From a virus, in the IMG/VR virus record IMGVR_UViG_3300006065_000007, positions 84,459-136,948 of that record: a stretch of DNA of 52,490 bases. The stretch is one strand, 5' to 3'. This document shows, one piece after another, positions 1-22,717 of this stretch (position 1 is its first letter; each line of letters opens with the position of its first letter). Position numbers and translations under genes: made by a program. A model generated the notes under the pieces. The model was not told the DNA's origin. It worked only from the letters and a program-made list of their open reading frames with translations, and did no database searches.

Positions 1-1834
1 TAGCAACTCTCTGTACATATGATTCAACATCTTTATCATCCATATTACCTACAAAAACCTTAAATACACGTCTTTCAGGTGCTCTAGATGTTCGATATAT
101 TAACATAGCATCTTCTGCTAATAACAATTGTTTCCAAATTCTTCTTATTTTATCTAACATACTAGTTCCGTAGGGTAATTTCCTATCATCACCAAGTATT
201 CTAAAATGTGCCATTTCCCATGATTGGAATTCAATGTCTTTATTCTTCCATGCAAATCTTAATTCTTTAGTTGACGATAATTTAGATGTGGTAAGTTGTG
301 TATTCATACCATCGTTAGACGAACCTTCTATACGTTCTATTTCGATGTTTGGTAATTGTTGACAACCTACTATTCCTTTTTCAGGATCTATTTTCAAATA
401 TACAAAGTCATCACCATATTTACACATACCTCTAGTCCACATTTGAAGGTTAGTATCAATATCTAAAGTATTTTTAAATAAATCTTCTAAAACACTCTTT
501 ATTCTTTTCGATTCTGAATAAATTGTTAAAATTTCACCTTTCTCTGACATTGTACAACTTTCCTCCGCATATATATCTAACGCAGCAGATATCTCAGGTG
601 TATTATGTGAAAATATAGTATCAGTTGCAAAATTTTTATATCCTGGAACTGTCAAATCATAAACAGGAACAACACCATAAGGTTCAATCGATAATATTTT
701 ATGATTTAAAACATATTTATCACCTTTAACTTTTGCTGTTGAGTATTTTGATTTTTCAATATTATACGCATCACAAAATGTTGACCAATCTTTATATCCA
801 GCCCACATAATTTCTCTTTGTAATTTTGTATGTGCAATATTTAACGCTTTAGATGTTTTCTTTAATGTTTTATATTTTTTTGCTGTTTCAGTTATTAAAT
901 CAAATGGAATATGAAAATAAGCTGGATTATTTTTACCACTACGTTTACCATTCCATGAAAAATTTTTAGGTGACCTTGCAACTATTTTCATTTTTTCTAT
1001 ATAAACAGGATCACTCCACATTTTTTTTTTATTATGAATATTAGCATGATATGAGCGATGTTCATTTACATTCATAATTTTAAGATTTTCCGGTAAATTA
1101 TTTTTACCGTTAAAATCTATATGATGTACTTCTTCATTTTTTTCTTTTTTTCTATAAAACCATTCAGCTATTAAATCATGTTCAGCAACCCAACCATTAT
1201 GACCTTCATTTGAATTACAAGTATAAATCCAATTATATTTTTTATTGTTATAGAACGATTTTCTATAAAAGGGCATCATTGAATCCCCAACATTTAACTC
1301 TGAGATTCTAGAGAATGAACCATCACGTTTCATTAATCTATGATCCCATGTACCTATAATGAATCTTCCATCATCAAATGTGACTTTATATGTCATTTCA
1401 TCTCTTGTGTGATGTGCATTTTTAGCCAAAGCTGGAACAACTTTTTTTAAGTTATGGTCGTAAGAATATACTATAAATTCATAATCTTTTCCTTTATCTG
1501 AAAGTTCCTTAATTGATATACTACCATTAGGTGTAACTATTTGAGTATCACCATGTAAACAAAATTCCATAGACTCATAATCGTAATACGCTGATAATCT
1601 GTTAGGTTCGTAATAAACTGATTGGTTATATAATGTTTGATCAATCTTAGTCCATTTATCGGCTAGATATTGAGATTGTTGTGCTTGTAATAAAGCTTTT
1701 TGATAATCTTCTTTACTATCTGTTTTCAACAATTCATCTTTAGTGAATTTATAAGTAGGTAAAGATTCTTCTCCGTTTTGAAATCCAAAAACTTTAGTTA
1801 ATTTTTGGAATATAGTTAAATTATTATTTGCCAT
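1..1834 (-). CDS. Portal protein (T4 gp20-like) with intein; runs off the window start
   Basis: Manual translation from ATG 1834 (MANNNLTIFQKL...). The C-terminal part reads RKIWKQLLLAEDAMLIYRTSRAPERRVFKVFVGN, the T4-type portal motif. It is adjacent to the terminase. It is absent from the ORF track because no stop falls in the window. Confidence 0.9.
   Translation of the reverse strand, partial: MANNNLTIFQKLTKVFGFQNGEESLPTYKFTKDELLKTDSKEDYQKALLQAQQSQYLADKWTKIDQTLYNQSVYYEPNRLSAYYDYESMEFCLHGDTQIVTPNGSISIKELSDKGKDYEFIVYSYDHNLKKVVPALAKNAHHTRDEMTYKVTFDDGRFIIGTWDHRLMKRDGSFSRISELNVGDSMMPFYRKSFYNNKKYNWIYTCNSNEGHNGWVAEHDLIAEWFYRKKEKNEEVHHIDFNGKNNLPENLKIMNVNEHRSYHANIHNKKKMWSDPVYIEKMKIVARSPKNFSWNGKRSGKNNPAYFHIPFDLITETAKKYKTLKKTSKALNIAHTKLQREIMWAGYKDWSTFCDAYNIEKSKYSTAKVKGDKYVLNHKILSIEPYGVVPVYDLTVPGYKNFATDTIFSHNTPEISAALDIYAEESCTMSEKGEILTIYSESKRIKSVLEDLFKNTLDIDTNLQMWTRGMCKYGDDFVYLKIDPEKGIVGCQQLPNIEIERIEGSSNDGMNTQLTTSKLSSTKELRFAWKNKDIEFQSWEMAHFRILGDDRKLPYGTSMLDKIRRIWKQLLLAEDAMLIYRTSRAPERRVFKVFVGNMDDKDVESYVQRVA
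602..1561 (-). mobile_element. Intein (320 aa) with HNH homing endonuclease in the portal
   Basis: In-frame 960 nt. Starts ESMEF|CLHGDTQIVTPNG, has block B TWDHRL and an HNH motif EEVHHIDFNGKNNLPENL, and ends VYDLTVPGYKNFATDTIFSHN|TPEI. Confidence 0.9.
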
Positions 1835-1895
1835 TATTATAAATAGTTGAGTGTTCTAATTTAAACTTTTTTATTTTAATAATAAATACTTAATA

Positions 1896-3671
1896 TTATT
1901 TAGGTTTACCAAATAACCAATAATATTCTTTATACATTTCTTTTACATTATTCATTGGGTTATCCATATAATAAAGTTGGTTATTATCTGTTTTCATACT
2001 ACCGACAGCATCCAACACAGTACCATATGAATAAAAGCTAGAATTTGGGTCATAAGTTCTTTGAGTAATAGTCCATGAGTTTAGAATTGCTTTATTGAGA
2101 TCTTCATTTCTTTTCAATTGACTAAAACAAATTTCCCCAGCATACATTGCAATCGCAATACTCATTATTGAATCATCGTGAGTACCTTTCATGTGGTCAG
2201 GTCTTCCATTAATATAAACAAACGTATTTAATTCACTAGCTAATCTTTGTGATCTAACAATGAAATCATGTCTAAGTTGTTCTTCAAATGTTGCAACGAT
2301 TTGTGTACGTTTACTATTAAAATTAATTCCGGGAATCTTATCTAACAATTTTTCATTATATGACCATGTATCTTTTACGTTTATACCATCAATAAATAAA
2401 TCTTTATATCCAAATTCCTGTAATTTTCTAGATGTTGCGACACCCATTCCACCTGTTATATCAACAACAATAAATGCTTCATATAATAAACCCCATTTAT
2501 AAGCAATGGAAGCTAAATCATCAGGTGGTATTTTACCAACATATTCTAAAACTTGTTCTCTATCATCAAAATCTATTATATTAATAGAAGAAAAATCATC
2601 ACTATCACCACGGCTAACATCTATACCCATAATATATCTATGACCTATTATAGGTTCTTTCCATTGCCATAGTTGACCCATCATATATTTTTCAATAGGT
2701 GTTCTTACCATATTTTTAACGATGTTATTTTGTATTTCTTTTGGTATAACACTATCACCTGAACCTAAAAAGTCACATTCAATTTCTTGAGCAATTTGTC
2801 TTCTATCAAATTTAAATTTTTTAGCCATACCCTCAAACCATGAAGAAAATGGTTTATAACCTTGTTTAATTAATTCTGGATATTCCGATTTATCTTTAGC
2901 GTGTATAGTAATTTCATCATCATTATATAGTTCTCTATTTAACATATAATGTACCATGTCATCCACCTTTAACCATATTAAATCTTTGGTATATCTAGGG
3001 TCATTATACCAAGTAAGATCTGTTATATGGAAATTATTTTCACCATGAATAGATTGTTGATAAATTGCGTGATATATTGGATCAAAACCATTAGGTGTAG
3101 ATATTAAAATTATTTTACCACCTGTAGATAATGATGCCATAGATGCAGACCAAAAATCTTCACCTGCTTCTATATAAGCAGCCTCATCAAATATTAATAT
3201 TGTAGGTGTATAACCACGAAGAGCATCTTTTGAAGTTGCCACAGCTTTAACTTCACATCCATTATTTAATCTATATCTTGTTTCTGAATTTTTATCAGGT
3301 GAATAACCTACATTAATCCAATCAGGCCATTGATCAATAAAACCACGTATTTTATTTGCCATTTCTATAGCCGTATCTCTTTTATTGGCGATAATTAGTA
3401 CTCTTTCAGGAGCTTCAGGTTTTGCAAATTGAAGTTTTTTTGATATCCAAGCAGCGGTAACAGTAGATACACCAGCTTGACGATATTTTCTAGTTATATT
3501 TTCATTATATTGTTCGTAATCGTGTATTAGTTGTAATTGGTCAGGGAATAATTCTAATGGTACGAATTTTTTTTGTGTATTGTCATAAGTTTGTAAATAT
3601 GTTTTTAAAGCATAGGGGGTGTCTTTAACAATACGTACATATTCTTTTAATTGTTCTATTTTATTATTCAT
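1896..3671 (-). CDS. terL: Terminase large subunit
   Basis: Walker A-like RQAGVST, Walker B IFDEAA, motif III ISTPNG, and RNase H nuclease motifs MGIDVSRG and HDD. Confidence 0.93.
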   Translation of the reverse strand: MNNKIEQLKEYVRIVKDTPYALKTYLQTYDNTQKKFVPLELFPDQLQLIHDYEQYNENITRKYRQAGVSTVTAAWISKKLQFAKPEAPERVLIIANKRDTAIEMANKIRGFIDQWPDWINVGYSPDKNSETRYRLNNGCEVKAVATSKDALRGYTPTILIFDEAAYIEAGEDFWSASMASLSTGGKIILISTPNGFDPIYHAIYQQSIHGENNFHITDLTWYNDPRYTKDLIWLKVDDMVHYMLNRELYNDDEITIHAKDKSEYPELIKQGYKPFSSWFEGMAKKFKFDRRQIAQEIECDFLGSGDSVIPKEIQNNIVKNMVRTPIEKYMMGQLWQWKEPIIGHRYIMGIDVSRGDSDDFSSINIIDFDDREQVLEYVGKIPPDDLASIAYKWGLLYEAFIVVDITGGMGVATSRKLQEFGYKDLFIDGINVKDTWSYNEKLLDKIPGINFNSKRTQIVATFEEQLRHDFIVRSQRLASELNTFVYINGRPDHMKGTHDDSIMSIAIAMYAGEICFSQLKRNEDLNKAILNSWTITQRTYDPNSSFYSYGTVLDAVGSMKTDNNQLYYMDNPMNNVKEMYKEYYWLFGKPK

Positions 3672-12815: not shown

Positions 12816-13797
12816 TTATCTAATCAATTTTTTAAACATTATTTTTATCTCATTAATGTTTTGATTTAACTTAAACTTATCAACAATTTTTAAGGCTTCA
12901 TCTCTTGTTAAATTTGGATTTTCATACCATTCTTCTTGAACAGCATTTAATATATCACTAAATATTTTTGATGGTTTAAATCCCATTTGTATTAAATCTT
13001 TACCGCTGATTGGTAATTTCATATTTTTTTCAGTTATTTGGGAATCTAACTTTTTTATTCGTTCCCTAACTATTTTTATCTGATTTGGCATAGACGATGT
13101 ATCACTATGTGATATATTATCCGCATGTATTAAATCTAATATTTCTTCCAAATTTTCACCAACAGCAGATATAAATTTTCTTAATGATTTATCCGATAGT
13201 TTAGTTGTATCATCCATTCCATGTTTTAATGACATATGATGTTTTACACCTAACGCAACCGAATTGGTTAAATCTTTAGGGTATTTTAATCAATCCATTT
13301 TTTAAATCTGATATACCATTACCTGTTATATCTATTATTTCACCGGTTGAAATATTTTTAAGTAGAGAATTAATCGTCAAATCTCTACGTAAAGCATCGT
13401 CTTTTAATTCACCCGAAGTTACAATAGGTTTTCTTGAACCTGGCTCATATGTTTCCTTTCTAGGTGCAACAAACTCTAATTCAGTTACAGGTAAATTTGA
13501 ATTATTGTTTTTTAATGATAATTTTGCCGTTCCAAATCTTGGATAAATTACTGGATTACTTTCTTTTTTATAATTACCCAATTCTTTTCCCAACCATTCA
13601 GCAAAATCAATACCACTAGTTAATTCCCCTAAAATTAAAAAATCCAAATCTTTAGGTTTTAACCCCATAATTTCGTCCCTAACTGCTCCACCAGCTAAAT
13701 ATACTTTACTCTCCCATTCAGTTTTTTTAATTTTATTTTTTAGAAAATCTAAAATATGTTCCTCGTTAGTAGACTCCTGTAACAATTTTTTTATCAT
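12816..13797 (-). pseudogene. cca: CCA-adding tRNA nucleotidyltransferase, internally deleted and frameshifted
   Basis: The N-part has YLAGGAVRD, KDLDF and DALRRDLTINSL. The C-part has LKYP..HHM..ADN and LPISGKDLIQMG. The central body and HD region are missing at a junction near 13280-13292. Confidence 0.8.
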
Positions 13798-13920: not shown

Positions 13921-13960
13921 TTTTATTTGTTTATTTGAATATTTATTTGTATCTTTGTAT
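13921..13960 (+). promoter_or_regulatory. Bacteroidota-type sigma promoter of the tRNA operon
   Basis: TATCTTTG (-7 element TAnnTTTG) at about 13950 with TTTG elements upstream. Confidence 0.65.
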
Positions 13961-13985
13961 CATCAAAAATAAATTATTACATATT

Positions 13986-14084
13986 ATGAAACATTTCGCA
14001 CATATTATTTCTTTTATTGCCTGTTCAAAATGGAACATGGAGCGTGATTTTTTCCTTATCGGGGTACATACTCATAATATGTAA
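13986..14084 (+). CDS. Putative leader (attenuator) peptide, 32 aa
   Basis: MKHFAHIISFIACSKWNMERDFFLIGVHTHNM*, lying between the promoter and a terminator. Confidence 0.6.
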   Translation: MKHFAHIISFIACSKWNMERDFFLIGVHTHNM

Positions 14085-14102
14085 AAAAGTAATGTAAGTT
14101 AC

Positions 14103-14138
14103 AAAAACCCCGAAATTGATTTTTCGGGGTTTTTTTTT
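14103..14138 (+). terminator. Intrinsic terminator (attenuator) upstream of the first tRNA
   Basis: AAAAACCCCGAAA-loop-TTTCGGGGTTTTT followed by a T-run. An alternative partner TCGGGGT lies at 14059-14065. Confidence 0.8.
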
Positions 14139-14153
14139 GTTCTTTTAAATATT

Positions 14154-14227
14154 GGGTTGGTAGTTTAGATGGCTAAAACACCTGATTTGCACTCAGGAGA
14201 CCGAGGGTTCGATGCCCTTCCGATCCA
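14154..14227 (+). tRNA. tRNA-Ala(TGC)
   Basis: Acceptor GGGTTGG/CCGATCC, anticodon arm CCTGA-TTTGCAC-TCAGG, GTTCGA T-loop. Confidence 0.9.
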
Positions 14228-14298
14228 CAAAACGTTCATTGACATGTTGGAATAAAAAAAAACAAAATAGGGTTATCATTAAGATAACCCCGAAAGAC

Positions 14299-14369
14299 GC
14301 CCTTATCGTCTAAAGGAAGGACACTACTCTTTCAAGGTAGAAATACGGTCTCGGGATCCGTTAAGGGTA
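14299..14369 (+). tRNA. tRNA-Glu(TTC), atypical T-loop
   Basis: Acceptor GCCCTTA/TAAGGGT, anticodon arm CTACT-CTTTCAA-GGTAG. Confidence 0.75.
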
Positions 14370-14406
14370 CTTTTTTTCATTTTGTTTATATTTATTATAT
14401 ATTAAA

Positions 14407-15720
14407 ATGAAACAAATGGACTATTAATGAAATAACATTATTAAAAAATAATTATGAAAAATTTGGAATTAAGAGGATATGTGAAGTAATACCAAATCAT
14501 AGTCGAAATAGTATTTTAAAAAAGGCTCATGAATATAATTTAAAAGTTGATAAAACTATATACTATCATTCTATAAATGAAATTGAAGACGTTGTTAAAT
14601 CTTCGTTATCTTTTTCAGAAGTTTTTAGAAAATTAAATAAATCGAAATCAGGAGATTCTTTTAAGGTATTAAAAAATTTTATTATTAAAAATGGTATTGA
14701 TACTTCTCATTTTGACCCATATAAAAATAATAAATCTAAAATAAAAAAAATATCTATTAATGATTGGTTAAATTATGGAACAAATATAACATCATCTAAA
14801 TTAAAAGAAAAATTGTATCAAGAAAAATTAAAAAATAAAGTTTGTGAATTATGTGGTCAAGATGAAAATTGGAACGGTAAAAAAATGTCACTAATTTTAG
14901 ATCATATCAATGGAATTAATAATGATAATCGATTGGAAAATTTAAGAATTGTATGTCCTAATTGTAACGCCACACTAGATACTCATTGTAAAGGATATAG
15001 GGGTTAAACATCAAGGAAGGTATTGAAAGAGTAAAGAGAAGTAAGCATGGTAGTAATGGACAGAAAAGAGCAAGAAGAGCATTAAAACAAAGAATTGACG
15101 AAACAGTAAAGGAATTATTTAAAGTCGAAACCCCTGATTTGATTGTTGTTGAACAATTAAAAAACATGGGACATAAAACAAAAGCCAAACGTCTATTGGC
15201 TAAAAATATGAGGCGTTCTATCGGTATTTGGAATTGGAAGTACTGGCTTAAAAGGTTACAAGAACACACTGAATTAAACCGTGTTTGGTTTAGAAGTGTA
15301 TCACCTTATTACACCAGTCAAACTTGTCCAAAGTGTAATCACACTGATAGGGGAAATCGAAATGGTGAAATGTTTAAGTGTTTGAGTTGTGGTTACACAA
15401 ACAATGCTGATATAAATGCAAGTATAAACATTTTAAATCGATTTCTCACGGGACAATACGGTGTCCGTTACAAACAAGAAAATCTACTTACCAATTTTTT
15501 GTAGATTTTTTTGAACGGTTTAATTAAAGATAATAATAATAATAATAATAATAAACAAAGAATAAATAAAAGAAAAGTTGAACGTCCTTCATATAATGAC
15601 TTATTAAATTATGTAAATATTAATGGATATTCTGCAACTGGTAGAAAATATGGTGTTAGTGATAATGCTATTAGAAAATGGATTAAATATTATGAAAAAA
15701 CAGAAAATATAATGTTTTGA
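14407..15720 (+). pseudogene. HNH homing endonuclease interrupted by a TnpB element
   Basis: The frame is open from about 14414 (KWTINE...) through CELC..LDHINGINNDNRLENLRIVCPNC..KGYRG and resumes as LIKD..KVERPSY..GRKYGVSDNAIRKW after the insert. The ATG at 14407 is one base out of frame. Paralog of 16451-17131. Confidence 0.8.
15004..15518 (+). mobile_element. tnpB: Truncated IS607/IS200-605-type element carrying the 3' part of tnpB
   Basis: RuvC-II IVVEQL, zinc finger TSQTCPKC..CLSCG and RuvC-III NADINAS. GG occurs at both junctions and the right end is ...TTTTGAACGG. Removing the insert restores the HNH frame. Confidence 0.8.
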
Positions 15721-15732
15721 TAATATATACAT

Positions 15733-15809
15733 GGTGTGTGGGGCTGCTTGGCGTGGCCGTCTGACTGTCACTCAGAAGATTCAGGTGGGTTCGATTCCCA
15801 TACGCACCG
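15733..15809 (+). tRNA. tRNA-Asp(GTC)
   Basis: Acceptor GGTGTGT/ACGCACC, anticodon arm TCTGA-CTGTCAC-TCAGA. Confidence 0.9.
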
Positions 15810-15849
15810 CATTATATGTTCTTTGACATGTTGATACAAATATTTTAAT

Positions 15850-15922
15850 GGTCGGTTCATCTAAATGGATAGGATATGAGACCTTCAATCTCATTATACG
15901 GGATCGTACCCCGTACCGACTG
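15850..15922 (+). tRNA. tRNA-Glu(TTC), second copy
   Basis: Acceptor GGTCGGT/ACCGACT, anticodon arm TGAGA-CCTTCAA-TCTCA. Confidence 0.8.
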
Positions 15923-15932
15923 CATTATAAAT

Positions 15933-16005
15933 GGTGTGATAGCTCCAATGGTAGAGCGAGGGACTGAAAATTCCTGCGTTGGTGGTTCAAGTCCACCTCA
16001 TACCA
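15933..16005 (+). tRNA. tRNA-Phe(GAA)
   Basis: Acceptor GGTGTGA/TCATACC, anticodon loop CTGAAAA, GTTCAA T-loop. Confidence 0.9.
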
Positions 16006-16038
16006 CAATAATTCAAAAAGAATTATTAATTAAATGAT

Positions 16039-16125
16039 GACTCTGTGGCCGAGTTGGAACTAGGCACCACACTTTTAATGTGGGATTCCAAAAGATGTAC
16101 GTGGGTTCGAGTCCCACCGGAGTCA
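16039..16125 (+). tRNA. tRNA-Lys(TTT) with a long variable region
   Basis: Acceptor GACTCTG/CGGAGTC, anticodon arm CCACA-CTTTTAA-TGTGG, 17-nt variable region. Confidence 0.8.
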
Positions 16126-16132
16126 CAAATTT

Positions 16133-16213
16133 CGGAGCGTAACCCTCCATCCTGATAAGATGGCTACGGGTAATTGGTAAGTGTAAATGTCAGTTCGATC
16201 CTGACCGCTCCGA
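16133..16213 (+). tRNA. Non-canonical tRNA-Ile(GAT)-like RNA with rearranged D region
   Basis: Acceptor CGGAGCG/CGCTCCG, anticodon arm CCATC-CTGATAA-GATGG only 7 nt after the acceptor, perfect T arm GTCAG-TTCGATC-CTGAC. Confidence 0.7.
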
Positions 16214-16283
16214 CAACAGTTTATTTTTTTTCATATAACTGTACTATTAGTACATAAAAAATATAAAAAATAAACAAAACATC

Positions 16284-16358
16284 ATAGGTGTGCCAGAGTT
16301 GGTCTATTGGCTCTGATTCCAAATCAGATGTTCGCGGGTTCGAATCCTGTCGCCTATG
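16284..16358 (+). tRNA. tRNA-Trp(CCA)
   Basis: Acceptor ATAGGTG/CGCCTAT, anticodon arm TCTGA-TTCCAAA-TCAGA. Confidence 0.88.
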
Positions 16359-16450
16359 CAAATAATACGGTTTATCTTTAAATAATCCGTATTTCAATTA
16401 GATTACCTAAACTTTTAATAGGGTTCGAAATATTTATATATAAAAAATAT

Positions 16451-17131
16451 ATGAAAACAATAACAAAAGATCAAATGTTAGAGATTATTAATAATTCTAA
16501 ATCTTTAAGAGAAGTTATTATAAAATTGGGTTTATCTACAAATGGGGGAGGTTGTTATAGTAATGTTAAAAATAAATTAAAAAAATTAGGGTTAGAAGTT
16601 CCAAAATATATAGGTGGTAACTATAAAAATTTTGTAAAAACAAGAAAAAAAAATACTGAAGTTTTTATTGAAAATTCAACATACCCAAGACAAAATTTAA
16701 AACGAAGAATTATAAACGAAAAATTAATTCCTTATATATGTAATAAATGTCATAATAATGGTATATGGGAAAATCAAAAATTAAGTTTACATTTAGATCA
16801 TATCAATGGAATTAATAATGATAATAGAATTGAAAATTTAAGATTTTTATGTCCAAATTGTCATTCACAAACTGAAACATATGGTGGAAAAAAAAATAAA
16901 AAGTTAATAGAAGAAAAATATCCTTTAATAAAACTTAAAAAACATACATTATCAAAAATTAAACAATATAAAAGTAAAACCAAACAAAGAAAAGTAGAAA
17001 GACCGTCATATGAACAATTATTAAATGAAATAGAACAACTTGGATATTCAGGAACTGGTAGAAAATATGGTGTATCAGATAATTCAATAAGAAAATGGGT
17101 TAAGTACTATAAAAAAGAAAAGGGGGTGTAG
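16451..17131 (+). CDS. HNH homing endonuclease with C-terminal HTH
   Basis: CNKC..LDHINGINNDNRIENLRFLCPNCHSQT. Its stop codon overlaps the 5' end of the next tRNA-like gene. Confidence 0.88.
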   Translation: MKTITKDQMLEIINNSKSLREVIIKLGLSTNGGGCYSNVKNKLKKLGLEVPKYIGGNYKNFVKTRKKNTEVFIENSTYPRQNLKRRIINEKLIPYICNKCHNNGIWENQKLSLHLDHINGINNDNRIENLRFLCPNCHSQTETYGGKKNKKLIEEKYPLIKLKKHTLSKIKQYKSKTKQRKVERPSYEQLLNEIEQLGYSGTGRKYGVSDNSIRKWVKYYKKEKGV

Positions 17132-17201
17132 TCGGTCCTGACTACGAATCAGGTAACTGTAATTGGATCTGAAAATGTGGGTTCGAATCCCACCACTCTC
17201 T
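17122..17201 (+). tRNA. Non-canonical tRNA-Arg(ACG)-like RNA with rearranged D region
   Basis: Acceptor GGGGGTG/CACTCTC, anticodon arm CCTGA-CTACGAA-TCAGG 8 nt after the acceptor, T arm GTGGG-TTCGAAT-CCCAC. Confidence 0.7.
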
Positions 17202-17227
17202 CGACTATTTATATATAAAGACATAAA

Positions 17228-17602
17228 ATGATAAGAAACACAAAGTTAAAAAGAATTTGTACTAATTGTAAAAAAGATATTAGTACCAATAGTAAAGAAA
17301 AAGAAATTTTTTGTTCTAAAGAGTGTGTTGAAGAATATCGTTCAACAAATAAAACAGATGTTAAAGTTAAAGAAAAAATTTTAGTTGAAGATATTTTAAA
17401 AGACATTAATAACTTAATTGTAGAACAAAATAATAAATGTAAAATTTGTAATGTTTCGTTTGATAAAATTAGACCACATATTTCAGAAACATATGATAGT
17501 AAAATAAAAGGTATTATATGTGAAAAATGTGATAAAGGATTAAAGTTTTTTTCAAATAACATTGGGATTTTAAAAAATGCAATAACGTTCTTAGAAAAAT
17601 AA
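17228..17602 (+). CDS. Endonuclease VII-like protein, probably degenerate
   Basis: QNNKCKIC...KIKGIICEKCDKGLKFF...LKNAITFL. The catalytic DH and N positions appear substituted. Confidence 0.65.
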   Translation: MIRNTKLKRICTNCKKDISTNSKEKEIFCSKECVEEYRSTNKTDVKVKEKILVEDILKDINNLIVEQNNKCKICNVSFDKIRPHISETYDSKIKGIICEKCDKGLKFFSNNIGILKNAITFLEK

Positions 17603-17603
17603 T

Positions 17604-17678
17604 GGGTAGGTGCTCGAGTGGTCAAAGGGAACGGACTGCAAATCCGTAAAGTCATCGGTTCGAATCCGATTCTACCCT
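17604..17678 (+). tRNA. tRNA-Cys(GCA)
   Basis: Acceptor GGGTAGG/TCTACCC, anticodon arm ACGGA-CTGCAAA-TCCGT, U73. Confidence 0.9.
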
Positions 17679-17691
17679 CACTTATATACAT

Positions 17692-17770
17692 GGTGTCTAT
17701 GGTGTTAATTGGTTAGCATGACAGATTGTGGTTCTGTTGGTGACAGGTTCGAGTCCTGCTAGACACACCA
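17692..17770 (+). tRNA. tRNA-His(GTG) with encoded G-1 and CCA
   Basis: Acceptor GTGTCTA/TAGACAC, anticodon arm ACAGA-TTGTGGT-TCTGT. Confidence 0.88.
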
Positions 17771-17772
17771 AC

Positions 17773-17855
17773 ACCGACATTGGACAACGGTTGTCCAGCA
17801 CTCTCATAAGGTGTGTTCTATATGAACATTATCGGTTCGAATCCGATTGTCGGTA
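17773..17855 (+). tRNA. tRNA-Met or Ile2 (CAT) with a variable-arm hairpin
   Basis: Acceptor ACCGACA/TGTCGGT, anticodon arm GCACT-CTCATAA-GGTGT, extra arm GTTC-TATAT-GAAC. Confidence 0.78.
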
Positions 17856-17954
17856 CAAATAAAAAAAAGTTCGGTATAAATTTGGTAATGTAAAAAATAG
17901 TTTGTATATTTGTACCATCAATTAAAAACAAGTTCTTTAAATAATGAAAAAAAT

Positions 17955-18089
17955 AGTGAGTGGTAATCGAAAGAGTTACTTCGTATTTTTAGATCAGTTG
18001 GATAGATCGTAAAATTTAGGTTTTTAATGTCGGTGGTTCGAATCCACCAAAATACAACATTGTAATACTCTTTTAACCTTTCCCTTACT
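17955..18089 (+). ncRNA. tRNA-like cloverleaf (TAG anticodon, 17983-18056) enclosed in a long bulged stem; Y-RNA-like
   Basis: 5' AGTGAGTGGTAATCGAAAGAG pairs with 3' CTCTTTTAACCTTTCCCTTACT. It has its own promoter at about 17906 and a boxA-like motif at 17932. Confidence 0.6.
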
Positions 18090-18827: not shown

Positions 18828-19065
18828 AATGGCACATAACGTATGGTGCTATGAGCAGGTTTGCCTTGCAGAAATGTTCAAGTTACCGAAAATGTTATTG
18901 GCAAACTTGCTTATAGCGTTAAATGTATGAAATGTAGGCGAATAGGAACTACTGCCCTATCAACCTGCACAAAACTAAATAGAAAGTAGAAAAGTATAAA
19001 CCTGCACTGAACTGCCTATATTTTATACATATTGTTAGGCGTATGTGCTTTATTTTTAAATCAAA

Positions 19066-19338
19066 ATGAGAAAACAAGTAGAAGAAGAATATTGGATTTG
19101 CATTATAGGTGCAGCCAATAGTAAAAATTTAAAAGGTGGCTCAGATTCGCCTATGAGAAATGCAGTTCAAAAAGCATTTGAGGAAACAACAGGACACGAA
19201 GACGAAACATGTTGGAGTGGTTGGGGTTCAGAAAAAGAAAAAGTAGATGTTGTAAATTCTGTTTGGTCAATGGATAAAGACGACCCATTATATGAAGCAA
19301 TTAAATGTATGCTCAAATGTGGTGGTCGGATTTCTTAG
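19066..19338 (+). CDS. Cassette hypothetical protein
   Basis: ORF bounded by complementary core sites. Confidence 0.7.
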   Translation: MRKQVEEEYWICIIGAANSKNLKGGSDSPMRNAVQKAFEETTGHEDETCWSGWGSEKEKVDVVNSVWSMDKDDPLYEAIKCMLKCGGRIS

Positions 19339-19412
19339 CATTACGCCTAACGGTCGAGTATTGGCGTTGTTGCCATCACAGAATTTAATTAATAACACTA
19401 AACTATAATATT

Positions 19413-19625
19413 ATGGAAAACTTATCAGAAAGCACGAACAGCAATAACGCTAATACTTTGTTAGCACCTGTTTATTCGCAAGATGAAGTTAAATCACTTA
19501 TTCAAGCGATATATTCAGAATTTGCAGAACTACCATTAAAAATGCACACAACTCATAACTTGCGTGGCATCATAGAACAAGAAGTTGAACAACACCCACT
19601 AAAACCAATTAAGATTTTTAAATAG
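19413..19625 (+). CDS. Cassette hypothetical protein starting inside the attC hairpin
   Basis: The ATG lies in the palindrome loop and the frame reads through GTTAGCA. Confidence 0.6.
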   Translation: MENLSESTNSNNANTLLAPVYSQDEVKSLIQAIYSEFAELPLKMHTTHNLRGIIEQEVEQHPLKPIKIFK

Positions 19626-19763
19626 GTGCTAACGGCGGTAATATGAAAAGTTGGCTTTGCAGACACTTTCAAGTTACCACATCAGTTTGATAGCCAATTT
19701 TTTATATTACGTGTTATCGGCTGCCTTTTATTAATCAAATTATTCACTTAAAATTTAAATAAA

Positions 19764-20081
19764 ATGGGATTAGATTTTTCACATACTTGTCCGAAAATAG
19801 ACAAGGCAATTTCAGAGGCAAAAGATACTATTATTGACTATCTGAAAAATTATATTACTGATTTATGCCCTTATATAAGTGATGATAAAGCAAATGAATT
19901 ATCAAAAGATTGGGGTACGGATTTATATAATAAAATTTCAGACGGATTTGAAGCCACAAGAGAAACAAATGAAGATATGAGAAAACAAGCAGACTATCAG
20001 ATTGAAAAACTCGAATCTGAAATTGAATATTTAAAGTCTGAAATTAAAGAACTCGAAAGCCAATTAGATGCTGTTTCTTAG
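19764..20081 (+). CDS. Cassette hypothetical coiled-coil protein
   Basis: ORF bounded by GTTATCGGC/GCCGATAAC. Confidence 0.7.
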   Translation: MGLDFSHTCPKIDKAISEAKDTIIDYLKNYITDLCPYISDDKANELSKDWGTDLYNKISDGFEATRETNEDMRKQADYQIEKLESEIEYLKSEIKELESQLDAVS

Positions 20082-20266
20082 GTTGCCGATAACGGTTGGC
20101 GGTATGAAATCGAAGCGGAATGCGAGCGATAAACTGTCAACCACTACAGAAGATTGAACGGGAGACAAAGCCCCAAAATAGCACTGAAACCGCTTTGTTT
20201 TATACCGCTTGTTATGGTTTCGTGCTTTATTAATCAGATTGTTAAACTTAAAAAATAAAATCAAAA

Positions 20267-20548
20267 ATGAAACAAACGGCAATTGAATGGCTATTAGAGA
20301 ATATGCCAGATTTAAGTCAAAATATAGAAATTGGGCTAACTCTTGAATTACATGCTAAACTTCAACATGCAAAAGAAATTGAAGAAGAGTTGCTAAAAGA
20401 TGCTTATTCAGATGGGATTAATGCACATCGTGTAAATTTTTGCAATAGGGATGAATATTTTCAAAAAGCATTCAGAGAAAATCAAACAGTTAAAAATCAA
20501 TTTTGCCCTTATTGTGGAAAATCTTCATGTTGTGGGGACTGTTCTTAG
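20267..20548 (+). CDS. Cassette hypothetical protein (MKQTAIEWL, Cys-rich tail)
   Basis: ORF bounded by GTTATGGTT/AACCATAAC. Confidence 0.7.
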   Translation: MKQTAIEWLLENMPDLSQNIEIGLTLELHAKLQHAKEIEEELLKDAYSDGINAHRVNFCNRDEYFQKAFRENQTVKNQFCPYCGKSSCCGDCS

Positions 20549-20792
20549 CATGAACCATAACGGTTGGGTGTATATGTAGTGTGAGATTTGAAAGACTGAA
20601 CTTGACTTAACCACAAATATTGATTAGAATGATGAACTTGGATAAACCACTGAATCTCACATTACATATACACCTTGTTATGTACAGGTGCGGTGAAGTT
20701 CAGACAAAACGCAATTAGAACCACAGACAAAAACAAAAAGAATTTTGGGTGGAAATTTTAAATTCAAATATTTATATATATAAAAGAAAACG

Positions 20793-21305
20793 ATGAAAGA
20801 TTTGAAGAAATTTATAGCGACTACAATAAGAGAATATCTGAACGAAAACATTTATAGTGAAATACCACAACCATTTGAGGGTATTGATGTAATTGGTATG
20901 GGAACATTTGGTAATAAACAATACCCAACAGATGCTTATGAAGCCTTTTCAGAACAATATGATTTACCAAATGAACCAATATTATATATACATAGTTTTT
21001 TCCCAAATGAAGAATACAGAGGTAAAGGATTAACAAAAAAATATCTATTAAAAACGCTTTCAGATTGGATTAATAATAGATTAAATAACAAAGAATTAAT
21101 TGAAAGAATAGGTATGCGTTCATTACGAAAATTTGGTGGGAGTGATTTATTTGGAACATCTTCTTTTTATGATGAAGGTGAAAAATTCTTCAATAATTTA
21201 GTTGATAATGGTTATTTAGAAAAAATTAATTTAAATAAAAACAAGGATGGTAGGGCTTTAAATTTATTTAAAATAACGGATAAGACTAAAAACCTAAATA
21301 TTTAA
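20793..21305 (+). CDS. Cassette protein, possibly GNAT-like, with its own TATTTATA motif
   Basis: LYIHSFFPNEEYRGKGLTK resembles GNAT motif A. Confidence 0.55.
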   Translation: MKDLKKFIATTIREYLNENIYSEIPQPFEGIDVIGMGTFGNKQYPTDAYEAFSEQYDLPNEPILYIHSFFPNEEYRGKGLTKKYLLKTLSDWINNRLNNKELIERIGMRSLRKFGGSDLFGTSSFYDEGEKFFNNLVDNGYLEKINLNKNKDGRALNLFKITDKTKNLNI

Positions 21306-21445
21306 AATGTGCGTTGGAAAATTCTTTTTGTTTTCTTCACTGAACTTAATTAGAAGTACTAATTTAGCACTTGTACATAACACGTTATATATTAACATTA
21401 ACTAAAGATTAACAAAAAGAATATCAACAAATTAAACTATAAAAT

Positions 21446-21679
21446 ATGAAAGATAATCAAGCGTTTGTTATTACTGTTCAAACTGAACTTGGACAATGTT
21501 ATTTAGGTGAAAGAGATAGTATAATGACTAAACCAAGTGGTGCTGTATTTTATCACGATGAAATGTATGCAAAGTCTGAATTAAATAGAGTTATTTCAAC
21601 ATATAGTTATACAGAAAATACATTCTTAAATGATAAGAGTAAATTGTCAATCAAGTTGGTTGAAATAAATATTTTATAA
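21446..21679 (+). CDS. Cassette hypothetical protein
   Basis: ORF between GTTATAT and TTATAAC. Confidence 0.55.
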   Translation: MKDNQAFVITVQTELGQCYLGERDSIMTKPSGAVFYHDEMYAKSELNRVISTYSYTENTFLNDKSKLSIKLVEINIL

Positions 21680-21882
21680 AATGTTTAATATTGATTATAA
21701 CGGTTGCAAATATTAAAAAGGATATGGTAAAGATGTTGAGGGTAGTATAATGAACTATGGTGAAATATGTAATTGTAATAGATATTTTCTTTGTGAACAT
21801 AGAATACAATGGATTGTGGACTTTATTAAGAAGAATTATGTATAACGGTTACAGATATATTTAGTTTTTTAATTATAATAAT

Positions 21883-22131
21883 ATGGAAGAAAAATATTTA
21901 GAACAATACAGAAACAACGGAATTAATTTTAATGAAACACAGGAAAAATTAAATATATCTGTTGTTATACAACGTTTGATTGAACGAAAAGAAAAATTGT
22001 TAAGAGATGTAGAATACTACGATTATTGTGTGAATGGAGGTGCTTATTTTCGTGAAGATGTTACTTATTACATTAGAACAATAAAGAGTAGATTAGTAGA
22101 GTTGGATTATCTTTTAGAAAATGTTGTCTAA
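21883..22131 (+). CDS. Cassette hypothetical protein starting inside the attC hairpin
   Basis: The frame reads through GTTATAC and its stop is part of GTCTAAC. Confidence 0.6.
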   Translation: MEEKYLEQYRNNGINFNETQEKLNISVVIQRLIERKEKLLRDVEYYDYCVNGGAYFREDVTYYIRTIKSRLVELDYLLENVV

Positions 22132-22218
22132 CGTCCTGGTGTATGATTAGTTTTAATTAATTATACCCATGAAAAAGGAAGTAAAAATAAAAGATTTTGT
22201 CAACAAACGTTAATTATT

Positions 22219-22467
22219 ATGGATGAAGTTAAAATGTTTTTATTCGCAAGGTGGATAGCTACTTGTTACGCTGATTCACATTTGGATAGTAAAATGAAGT
22301 GTGAACACGATGAAGGATTTAAAGAAAGTGAAGCAATATCTGTTTTAAATAGAGAAACAGGATACTGGTATAAGGAACAACTAAAACATTTTAATGATGT
22401 TGTATATCCAAATTACCTTGAAAACGGAACTGTTGATAATACGAAGCAGTTTTTTAATGTTTACTAA
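22219..22467 (+). CDS. Cassette hypothetical protein
   Basis: Its stop is part of TACTAACGGTTG. Confidence 0.55.
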   Translation: MDEVKMFLFARWIATCYADSHLDSKMKCEHDEGFKESEAISVLNRETGYWYKEQLKHFNDVVYPNYLENGTVDNTKQFFNVY

Positions 22468-22717
22468 CGGTTGGGTATATGTATGTAAAACAAAAATTAT
22501 AACTATGAAAAAAGAAGTAAAAATAGAAGATTTTGTTAGCAAAGATGAACTTGATGCTATGACAGAGACAGAACGTGAAATTTATGATAAAGTATTTCTG
22601 ATGAATAAACAAAATCTACAAGGATTGACTGACGCACTTGATATGATAAATAAAGTAAAAGAAAAAGATGGTGGATAATTTTTTATATCATATAACTAAA
22701 TTAAAATAATTGTCCAT

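Follow-up and report, generated by a model that had tools for sequence, protein, structure and literature searches.

Why phages carry tRNA genes of their own has been an open question for 50 years (PMC10264068), and the locus described here raises a more particular one: what are a short open reading frame and a strong terminator doing directly in front of a phage tRNA array? The locus lies in a window of 52,490 nucleotides, which is one part (positions 84,459 to 136,948) of the IMG/VR virus record IMGVR_UViG_3300006065_000007. This record has 136,948 bases, is 44% complete, derives from a hot-spring metagenome and encodes a T4-like terminase; the window sequence is identical in four runs of one sample, which are not independent of each other. 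With a probability of roughly 0.8, we propose that the reading frame and terminator form a ribosome-coupled attenuator that works as an OR gate on the supply of each tRNA under its control and would be closed again by its own products.

The elements of the locus follow one another on the plus strand in the order promoter, leader ORF, antiterminator arm, terminator, boxA, 12 tRNA genes and next promoter. The first promoter (13926..13957) is of the Bacteroidota sigma-A type, with a -33 TTTG at 13926-29 and a -7 box TATCTTTG at 13950-57. Many promoters of the form TTTG..TAnnTTTG are found in the record, in agreement with the Bacteroidota sigma-A consensus TAnnTTTG at -12..-5 (PMC9723704), and this agreement points to a Bacteroidota bacterium as the host, whose polymerase would read the leader promoter and start near 13962. 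The -7 box lies 28 nt from the leader ATG, the corresponding distance at the phage's other promoters of this type being mostly 18-31 nt. A sigma-70 scan gave 39 against 36.6 expected and is uninformative for such a host.

The leader ORF (13986..14084, ATG..TAA) has 32 codons; two upstream starts, TTG 13935 and ATG 13874, were rejected since both lie 5' of the inferred transcription start. The intrinsic terminator (14103..14138) has a 13-bp stem and a 6-nt loop (stem-loop 14103-14134, -17.6 kcal/mol) followed by a U run, and the first gene of the array, tRNA-Ala(TGC), starts 15 nt after it. This arrangement of promoter, ORF, strong terminator and tRNA is the one that an earlier note on this DNA had described. 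The same note had proposed that TCGGGGT (14059-65) within the ORF pairs with ACCCCGA (14107-13) of the terminator 5' arm and had suggested folding the region for the alternative structures. Indeed, the pairing is recovered; with an inner 5-bp helix (14066-70 with 14078-82) and a small hairpin (14089-14102), the antiterminator, whose 5' arm spans 14059..14070, reaches -14.8 kcal/mol in total against -17.6 kcal/mol for the terminator. The antiterminator uses the terminator 5' arm, making the two computed folds mutually exclusive, and the small hairpin, of 5 bp, is compatible with both. At equilibrium the terminator always wins in the full transcript, and the switch must therefore be kinetic, as the choice between folds is in known attenuators.

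Folding with modelled ribosome footprints, which end 12-16 nt past the P site, leaves the antiterminator free as long as the P site is at codon 20-21 or earlier, and blocks it once the ribosome has moved on. A high antiterminator probability at codons 32-33 was dropped as an artefact of RNA pairing across the ribosome. The codon 20-21 boundary is derived from structure and not from codon composition, and all 11 specificities sampled by the leader fall inside the stretch where a stalled ribosome frees the antiterminator. In the model, a stall at whichever codon up to 20-21 opens the switch, as would also be expected of a general translation-stress switch of the whiB7- or ABC-F-type, in which any slowing of the ribosome (by antibiotic, ribosome damage or host shut-off) opens the array and the codon content is incidental or a matter of tuning. 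We return to this explanation below.

A further element, additional to the earlier observation, is a perfect 13-bp helix whose 5' arm (13977..13989) covers the start codon and whose 3' arm (14072..14084) overlaps the antiterminator inner helix and the stop codon. None of 500 shuffles attains 13 bp, and the equilibrium population of the helix is no more than 0.39-0.73. Its two arms can pair ahead of synthesis of the terminator arm, at the cost of the antiterminator inner helix, and it could therefore act like the trp 1:2 pairing as a candidate protector; a pseudoknot could still permit the 7-bp antiterminator pairing in its presence. As a feature of the class the helix was rejected, a start-codon helix at p<0.05 being present in 7 of 35 leader families only.

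ARAGORN, Rfam and a pattern search together place 14 tRNA genes in the array, all on the plus strand. The tRNA-Ala(TGC) gene (14154-14228) is followed by tRNA-Glu(TTC) (14299-14370) and then by a block at 15733..16359 with tRNA-Asp(GTC) (from 15733), a second tRNA-Glu(TTC) with a C33 loop (15850-15923), tRNA-Phe(GAA) (from 15933), tRNA-Lys(TTT) with a long variable arm (16039-16126), tRNA-Ile(GAT) with a rearranged D domain (16133-16213) and, as its last gene, tRNA-Trp(CCA) (from 16284). A block at 17122..17856 holds tRNA-Arg(ACG), also with a rearranged D domain (17122-17201), tRNA-Cys(GCA) (from 17604), tRNA-His(GTG) (from 17693) and a CAT tRNA, Met or Ile2, with a long variable arm (17773-17856). 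The second promoter (17881-17912), which has no terminator, lies in the segment 17881..18172 ahead of tRNA-Leu(TAG) (17983-18056) and an initiator-type tRNA-Met (from 18099). The gated block thus comprises the first 12 genes, in 3.7 kb of largely untranslated DNA, with 11 specificities on the assumption that the CAT gene is Met, or 10 should it be Ile2.

Several of these genes are unusual. tRNA-Ile(GAT) and tRNA-Arg(ACG) have no D hairpin and show instead a 4-bp helix around the anticodon arm followed by a D-loop-like stretch. The same build is found at loci L316, L337, L287, L289, L357, L108 and L192, and in other phages with GAT, TAT, CAT and TCT anticodons; the leader ATT and CGT codons match the two rearranged tRNAs. 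The long variable arms of tRNA-Lys(TTT) and the CAT tRNA are rare among about 40 and about 90 distinct homologues, respectively. The loop of the second tRNA-Glu, CC-TTC-AA, is common to 12 distinct Glu tRNAs from the phage loci compared, and this C33 form may be resistant to anticodon nucleases. A pairing of C33 Glu tRNAs with GAG codons was unsupported (3/3 vs 7/12, p=0.5). tRNA-Leu(TAG) has a short variable loop, is very AT-rich and is nearer to Ile and His than to Leu tRNAs, which leaves its identity uncertain.

The codons of the leader correspond closely to the gated block. The sensing window, codons 2-21/22 (13989-14051), contains A, C, D, E, F, H, I, K, M, R and W together with the unmatched S, S and N, and has no codon for Tyr, Gln or Pro; codons 2-22 include at least one codon for each of the 11 amino acids carried by the gated tRNAs, and 18 of these 21 codons are in this set. 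Among 32,894 windows taken from the proteins of the phage, only five contain the full set of 11, and not one of the five also reaches 18 of 21. The control codons are scattered, at one to three per amino acid and with none in tandem. The earlier note had singled out the run A-C-S-K-W-N-M-E-R-D-F, which is indeed made up of 11 different residues, nine with a tRNA in the array, along with His and Ile codons, both of which fall inside the sensing window. Its remark that the leader Arg codon is CGT, fitting tRNA-Arg(ACG), likewise holds, despite the phage's strong preference for AGA (879 vs 168). It had also taken the leader to control the array as a whole. The match to the gated block supports this for 12 of the 14 genes, Leu(TAG) and the initiator lying outside the gate. 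These are the tRNAs that the leader does not sample (Leu first appears at codon 24, beyond the sensing window) or cannot sample (the initiator, because a stall in elongation cannot sample initiator tRNA).

The three codons without a tRNA (S, S and N) must be read against a record that is 44% complete, in which no Ser or Asn tRNA remnant was found. The nearest leader families (L245, L293, L254 and L035) share a C-x-K-W-like core and have similar tRNA blocks, some of which include Ser and Asn tRNAs. This suggests that the Ser and Asn tRNAs may have been lost here or may lie in the unsequenced part of the genome.

Could such a layout arise by chance, as an ORF that happens to precede an ordinary terminator, or could the leader specify a small peptide or an sRNA with some separate function? 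In AT-rich DNA short ORFs arise often, and the 7-bp complement alone is not rare, a comparable helix being present at 15 of 115 (13%) control terminators. The joint occurrence of the features is far more discriminating. A first search, with the terminator pattern alone, returned 14 sites with tRNAs behind the terminator and 115 without; a short ORF preceded 11 of the 14 as against 7 of the 115 controls, and an ORF with an antiterminator helix preceded 9 of the 14 as against one control. A second search of IMG/VR, for terminator plus boxA and blind to both ORFs and tRNAs, gave at least 119 matches. Among the matches listed, 100 sites have a tRNA within 450 nt; 96 of these have an ORF of 20-50 codons ending 15-50 nt before the terminator arm, and 91 have both the ORF and the antiterminator helix, compared with 1 of the 115 tRNA-less controls. 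The 107 leaders among the matches listed form 34 families at 50% identity, in which the upstream region pairs with its own terminator arm at -14.2 kcal/mol versus -9.8 kcal/mol after permutation (0 of 20,000). Residue order varies between families while composition tracks the tRNAs, which is not what a functional peptide would predict, and no Rfam family matches the leader. This class comparison largely refutes an origin by chance or a separate peptide or sRNA function, to which we give hardly any credence.

The design recurs beyond this phage group's promoter type. Leaders of 39-46 codons at loci L012, L030, L049, L102 and L121 lie behind TTGACT/TATAAT-type promoters, sample up to 19 of the 20 amino acids and precede arrays of 20-25 tRNAs, indicating that it is not limited to Bacteroidota-type promoters. 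In GTDB genomes (596 Gb), the terminator and boxA signature has 11 matches, of which one is a real cassette. This is a complete leader-terminator-boxA-tRNA arrangement at 150-3100 of a 362-kb contig in a Patescibacteria MAG (JBAZIW010000001.1, L379); the contig is probably a mis-binned jumbo phage.

We further note that leader codons track tRNA content in other phages, a comparison that the earlier note had put forward as a check. In the 32 usable families among the matches listed, the amino acids of a tRNA block are found in its own leader window with a recall of 0.93 (0.66 permuted), and window codons belong to the block with a precision of 0.74 (0.52 permuted). Neither value is attained in 20,000 permutations or in 10,000 within composition clusters, figures that overstate independence because the families share ancestry; in addition, some tRNA blocks are truncated where a locus stops, and odd tRNAs escape ARAGORN. 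The reading of the leader as a multi-tRNA sensor, which the earlier note had offered, is therefore well supported by comparison across leader families.

The match extends to the level of isoacceptors. Across the families listed, codon boxes follow the anticodons of the block for Ser-GCT with AGY (p=3e-5), Ser-TGA with TCN (8e-5), Leu-TAA with TTR (7e-5), Arg-ACG with CGN (7e-4) and Arg-TCT with AGR (6e-3); matching of Ile-TAT with ATA is not significant across these families. Within families, 42 of 80 single-base differences are at third positions and 41% are synonymous, which is an indirect sign of coding selection in families other than that of this leader. The isoacceptor match bears on a possible sensor of amino-acid starvation, acting through uncharged tRNA like the ilv and thr leaders and gating tRNA genes by happenstance. 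Stalling of ribosomes by amino-acid starvation is an established attenuation mechanism, and a ribosome short of one of the 11 amino acids would stop within this same stretch of codons. The tracking of block anticodons by synonymous codon boxes (Ser AGY/TCN, Leu TTR, Arg CGN/AGR) points instead to tRNA supply rather than amino-acid supply. Tandem control codons like those of trp and his are lacking, and a shortage of amino acids would presumably not be cured by more tRNA, making a starvation sensor quite unlikely.

The position of the matching codons also carries information. Across the families listed, the in-block codon share stays at 0.77-0.87 between 18 and 4 codons ahead of the antiterminator, then falls to 0.59 and 0.46 at its edge, where a ribosome would block the antiterminator. 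A general translation-stress switch predicts neither this loss of match at the occlusion edge nor the isoacceptor-level correspondence of leader and block. It would account for the fact that the antiterminator also forms without a ribosome in most of the other leader families (28 of 34 among those listed), and diverse uORFs are known to respond to antibiotics and many starvations (PMC10274678). The two explanations are partly compatible, as general stress would still trigger a tRNA sensor; as a full account of the cassette, translation stress seems to us unlikely.

A different concern is whether this particular cassette still works. Direct orthologues of the leader were not found near CCA-enzyme neighbours in IMG/VR, by patterns of the first and odd tRNAs (one related odd tRNA only), by leader patterns in viral and metagenome contigs, or by blastn against GenBank phages (tRNA and promoter pieces only). 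Homologues of ClpB (74-82% identical) and of the CCA enzyme (70-74%) lie on sequences that stop before the leader (L360) or do not adjoin tRNA arrays. Near the leader, the CCA-adding enzyme gene and two endonuclease genes are broken, suggesting that the locus may be partly decaying. The CCA-adding enzyme gene (12816-13797, minus strand), divergent from the array, lacks residues 173-333 of the 490-aa homologue P0121 and changes frame, on which the four runs of the sample agree. An HNH-type endonuclease gene (14407-15720) within the array has its long frame cut off from ATG 14407, and its HNH part is split from its C-terminal HTH part by the remnant of an IS that bears TnpB (about 15005-15519, with PF07282 at 15139-15504). 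Farther downstream, 18834-22468 contains small ORFs with TAAC...GTTA palindromes between them, resembling an integron cassette array.

The record also contains a motif, ATATTTA(T/A), located 4-33 nt 5' of 20 of its 134 ORFs, the terminase among them, which is a candidate late promoter of the phage group (window positions 3671, 13939, 14388, 16430, 17205 and 20793). One copy of this late-type motif, ATATTTAT at 13939-46, lies within the spacer of the leader promoter, and others at 14388, 16430 and 17205 precede endonuclease genes inside the array, so that downstream tRNAs may be transcribed regardless of the switch. These motifs, the adjoining broken genes, the three unmatched codons and the lack of an orthologue that would show selection would all suit a cassette that is a relic or a fixed throttle here, its tRNAs coming mostly from internal late promoters or phage-driven antitermination. 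Against this, no damage is seen in the ORF, either helix, the terminator or boxA, and the leader continues to cover all 11 specificities; we judge a relic to be very unlikely.

The boxA-type element (14139..14153), between the terminator and the first tRNA, is a second addition to the earlier observation; further copies lie inside the array at 14234 and 15818. Its motif is the same as the boxA of Bacteroidota rrn spacers, being present in the 16S-23S spacer just before the 23S rRNA in 7 of 12 Bacteroidota loci scanned, and also occurs before a host tRNA-Thr (L373). Its place right 3' of the terminator fits a probable loading of the host Nus complex upon read-through.

The mechanism that we infer for the proposed tRNA sensor, from leader translation to feedback, would run as follows. 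Host RNA polymerase would start near 13962 and a ribosome would translate the 32-codon leader. If codons 2-21 are all decoded promptly, the ribosome would cover 14059-70, the terminator would form and the array would stay off. Scarcity of even one of the 11 tRNA types would hold the ribosome upstream, the antiterminator would take the terminator 5' arm and polymerase would read through and pass boxA, where the host Nus complex would probably be loaded for antitermination along the 3.7-kb array. The new tRNAs would then relieve the stall, closing a negative feedback loop. On a transcript that no ribosome has entered, the 13-bp helix would form first and weaken the antiterminator, and this copy would therefore lean towards off. 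With one to three codons per tRNA, the switch should respond to severe loss more than to mild shortage. The shortage may come from defence nucleases, from phage-driven RNA decay or from demand; the host anticodon nucleases considered in the earlier note are just one of the ways in which tRNA can be depleted.

How does this leader compare with known systems? The multivalent leaders of E. coli ilvGMEDA, ilvBN and thr, and the single-signal leaders trpL, hisL, pheL and pheM of pheST, are the classical examples of attenuation. Like ilv and thr, the phage leader combines a promoter, a short ORF and mutually exclusive antiterminator and terminator folds, with ribosome position proposed to decide between them, and the 13-bp helix over its start is a candidate counterpart of the trp 1:2 pairing. 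Features by which attenuators can be recognised in sequence are present: a short ORF close to the promoter and followed by an intrinsic terminator before the regulated genes, an exclusive antiterminator on the terminator 5' arm that co-varies in the 34 families listed, control codons placed to suit stalled and running ribosomes (footprint folding and positional profile), and a relation of these codons to downstream gene function. It differs from amino-acid-operon attenuators in that the genes controlled are phage tRNA genes and not biosynthetic or synthetase genes, in having 11 signals from scattered codons instead of tandem runs of end-product codons for one to three, in that its product is the sensed molecule, and in the boxA 3' of the terminator. 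The tandem end-product codons and biosynthetic or synthetase genes of the classical amino-acid-operon type are both absent.

Leader-peptide attenuation has been indicated in Flavobacterium (PMC9723704). A further parallel is the whiB7/wblC uORF of Actinobacteria, which encodes many different amino acids and in which one codon is enough for sensitivity and a stall leads through an antiterminator to read-through; a single Trp codon suffices in M. smegmatis whiB7 (PMC10274678). That uORF is Ala-rich, is unmatched to a downstream gene set and controls a general-stress transcription factor, and loss of its start codon raises expression (PMC10274678); in the phage leader, the 13-bp helix would push in the opposite direction. 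The boxA resembles that of rRNA antitermination in motif and differs in lying behind a conditional terminator in a phage, where Nus binding is putative. A T-box works without translation, its specifier loop making direct contact with a single uncharged tRNA. As in a T-box, tRNA status would control terminator versus antiterminator, unlike a T-box through proposed leader translation; no T-box match was found in Rfam at E<=1, nor a specifier loop and T-box bulge. Judged by its sequence, the phage tRNA leader would thus work like the ilv/thr and whiB7 leaders, and belongs neither to the classical amino-acid-operon type nor to the T-boxes. We found no description of attenuation of tRNA genes in the literature searched, whose coverage takes in few subscription journals.

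A motive for an inducible array is provided by previous literature on counter-defence, in which tRNAs from the phage stand in for those of the host that defence nucleases have cut (PMC11555353, PMC10264068, PMC12445682). The T5/SP15 tRNA-Tyr counters retron-Eco7 PtuAB, the rescue being ascribed to a strong promoter (PMC11555353); the words "attenuation" and "leader" are absent from that text, which describes no regulated tRNA array. An anticodon-loop hypothesis (PMC10264068) and work on P2-OLD (PMC12445682) also treat phage tRNAs as counter-defence. Tentatively, and at somewhat less than even odds, the leader may be a surveillance switch of large phages, whose inventory of codons for the encoded tRNAs detects any host isoacceptor cleaved by defence nucleases and releases the corresponding set of nuclease-resistant replacements.

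A regulator that reads tRNA supply would make phage tRNAs an on-demand response to shortage and not a fixed supplement to codon bias. Attenuation, so far a matter of one to three amino acids, would be extended to 11 tRNAs that are read as an OR gate and feed back directly as its products. Leader codons would predict which odd genes of an array work as tRNAs, as ATT and CGT do here for Ile-GAT and Arg-ACG, and defence systems that cut tRNAs could be detected by using the cassette as a reporter. If the surveillance reading is true, the codons of these leaders would be a readable record of the tRNAs attacked by host defences.
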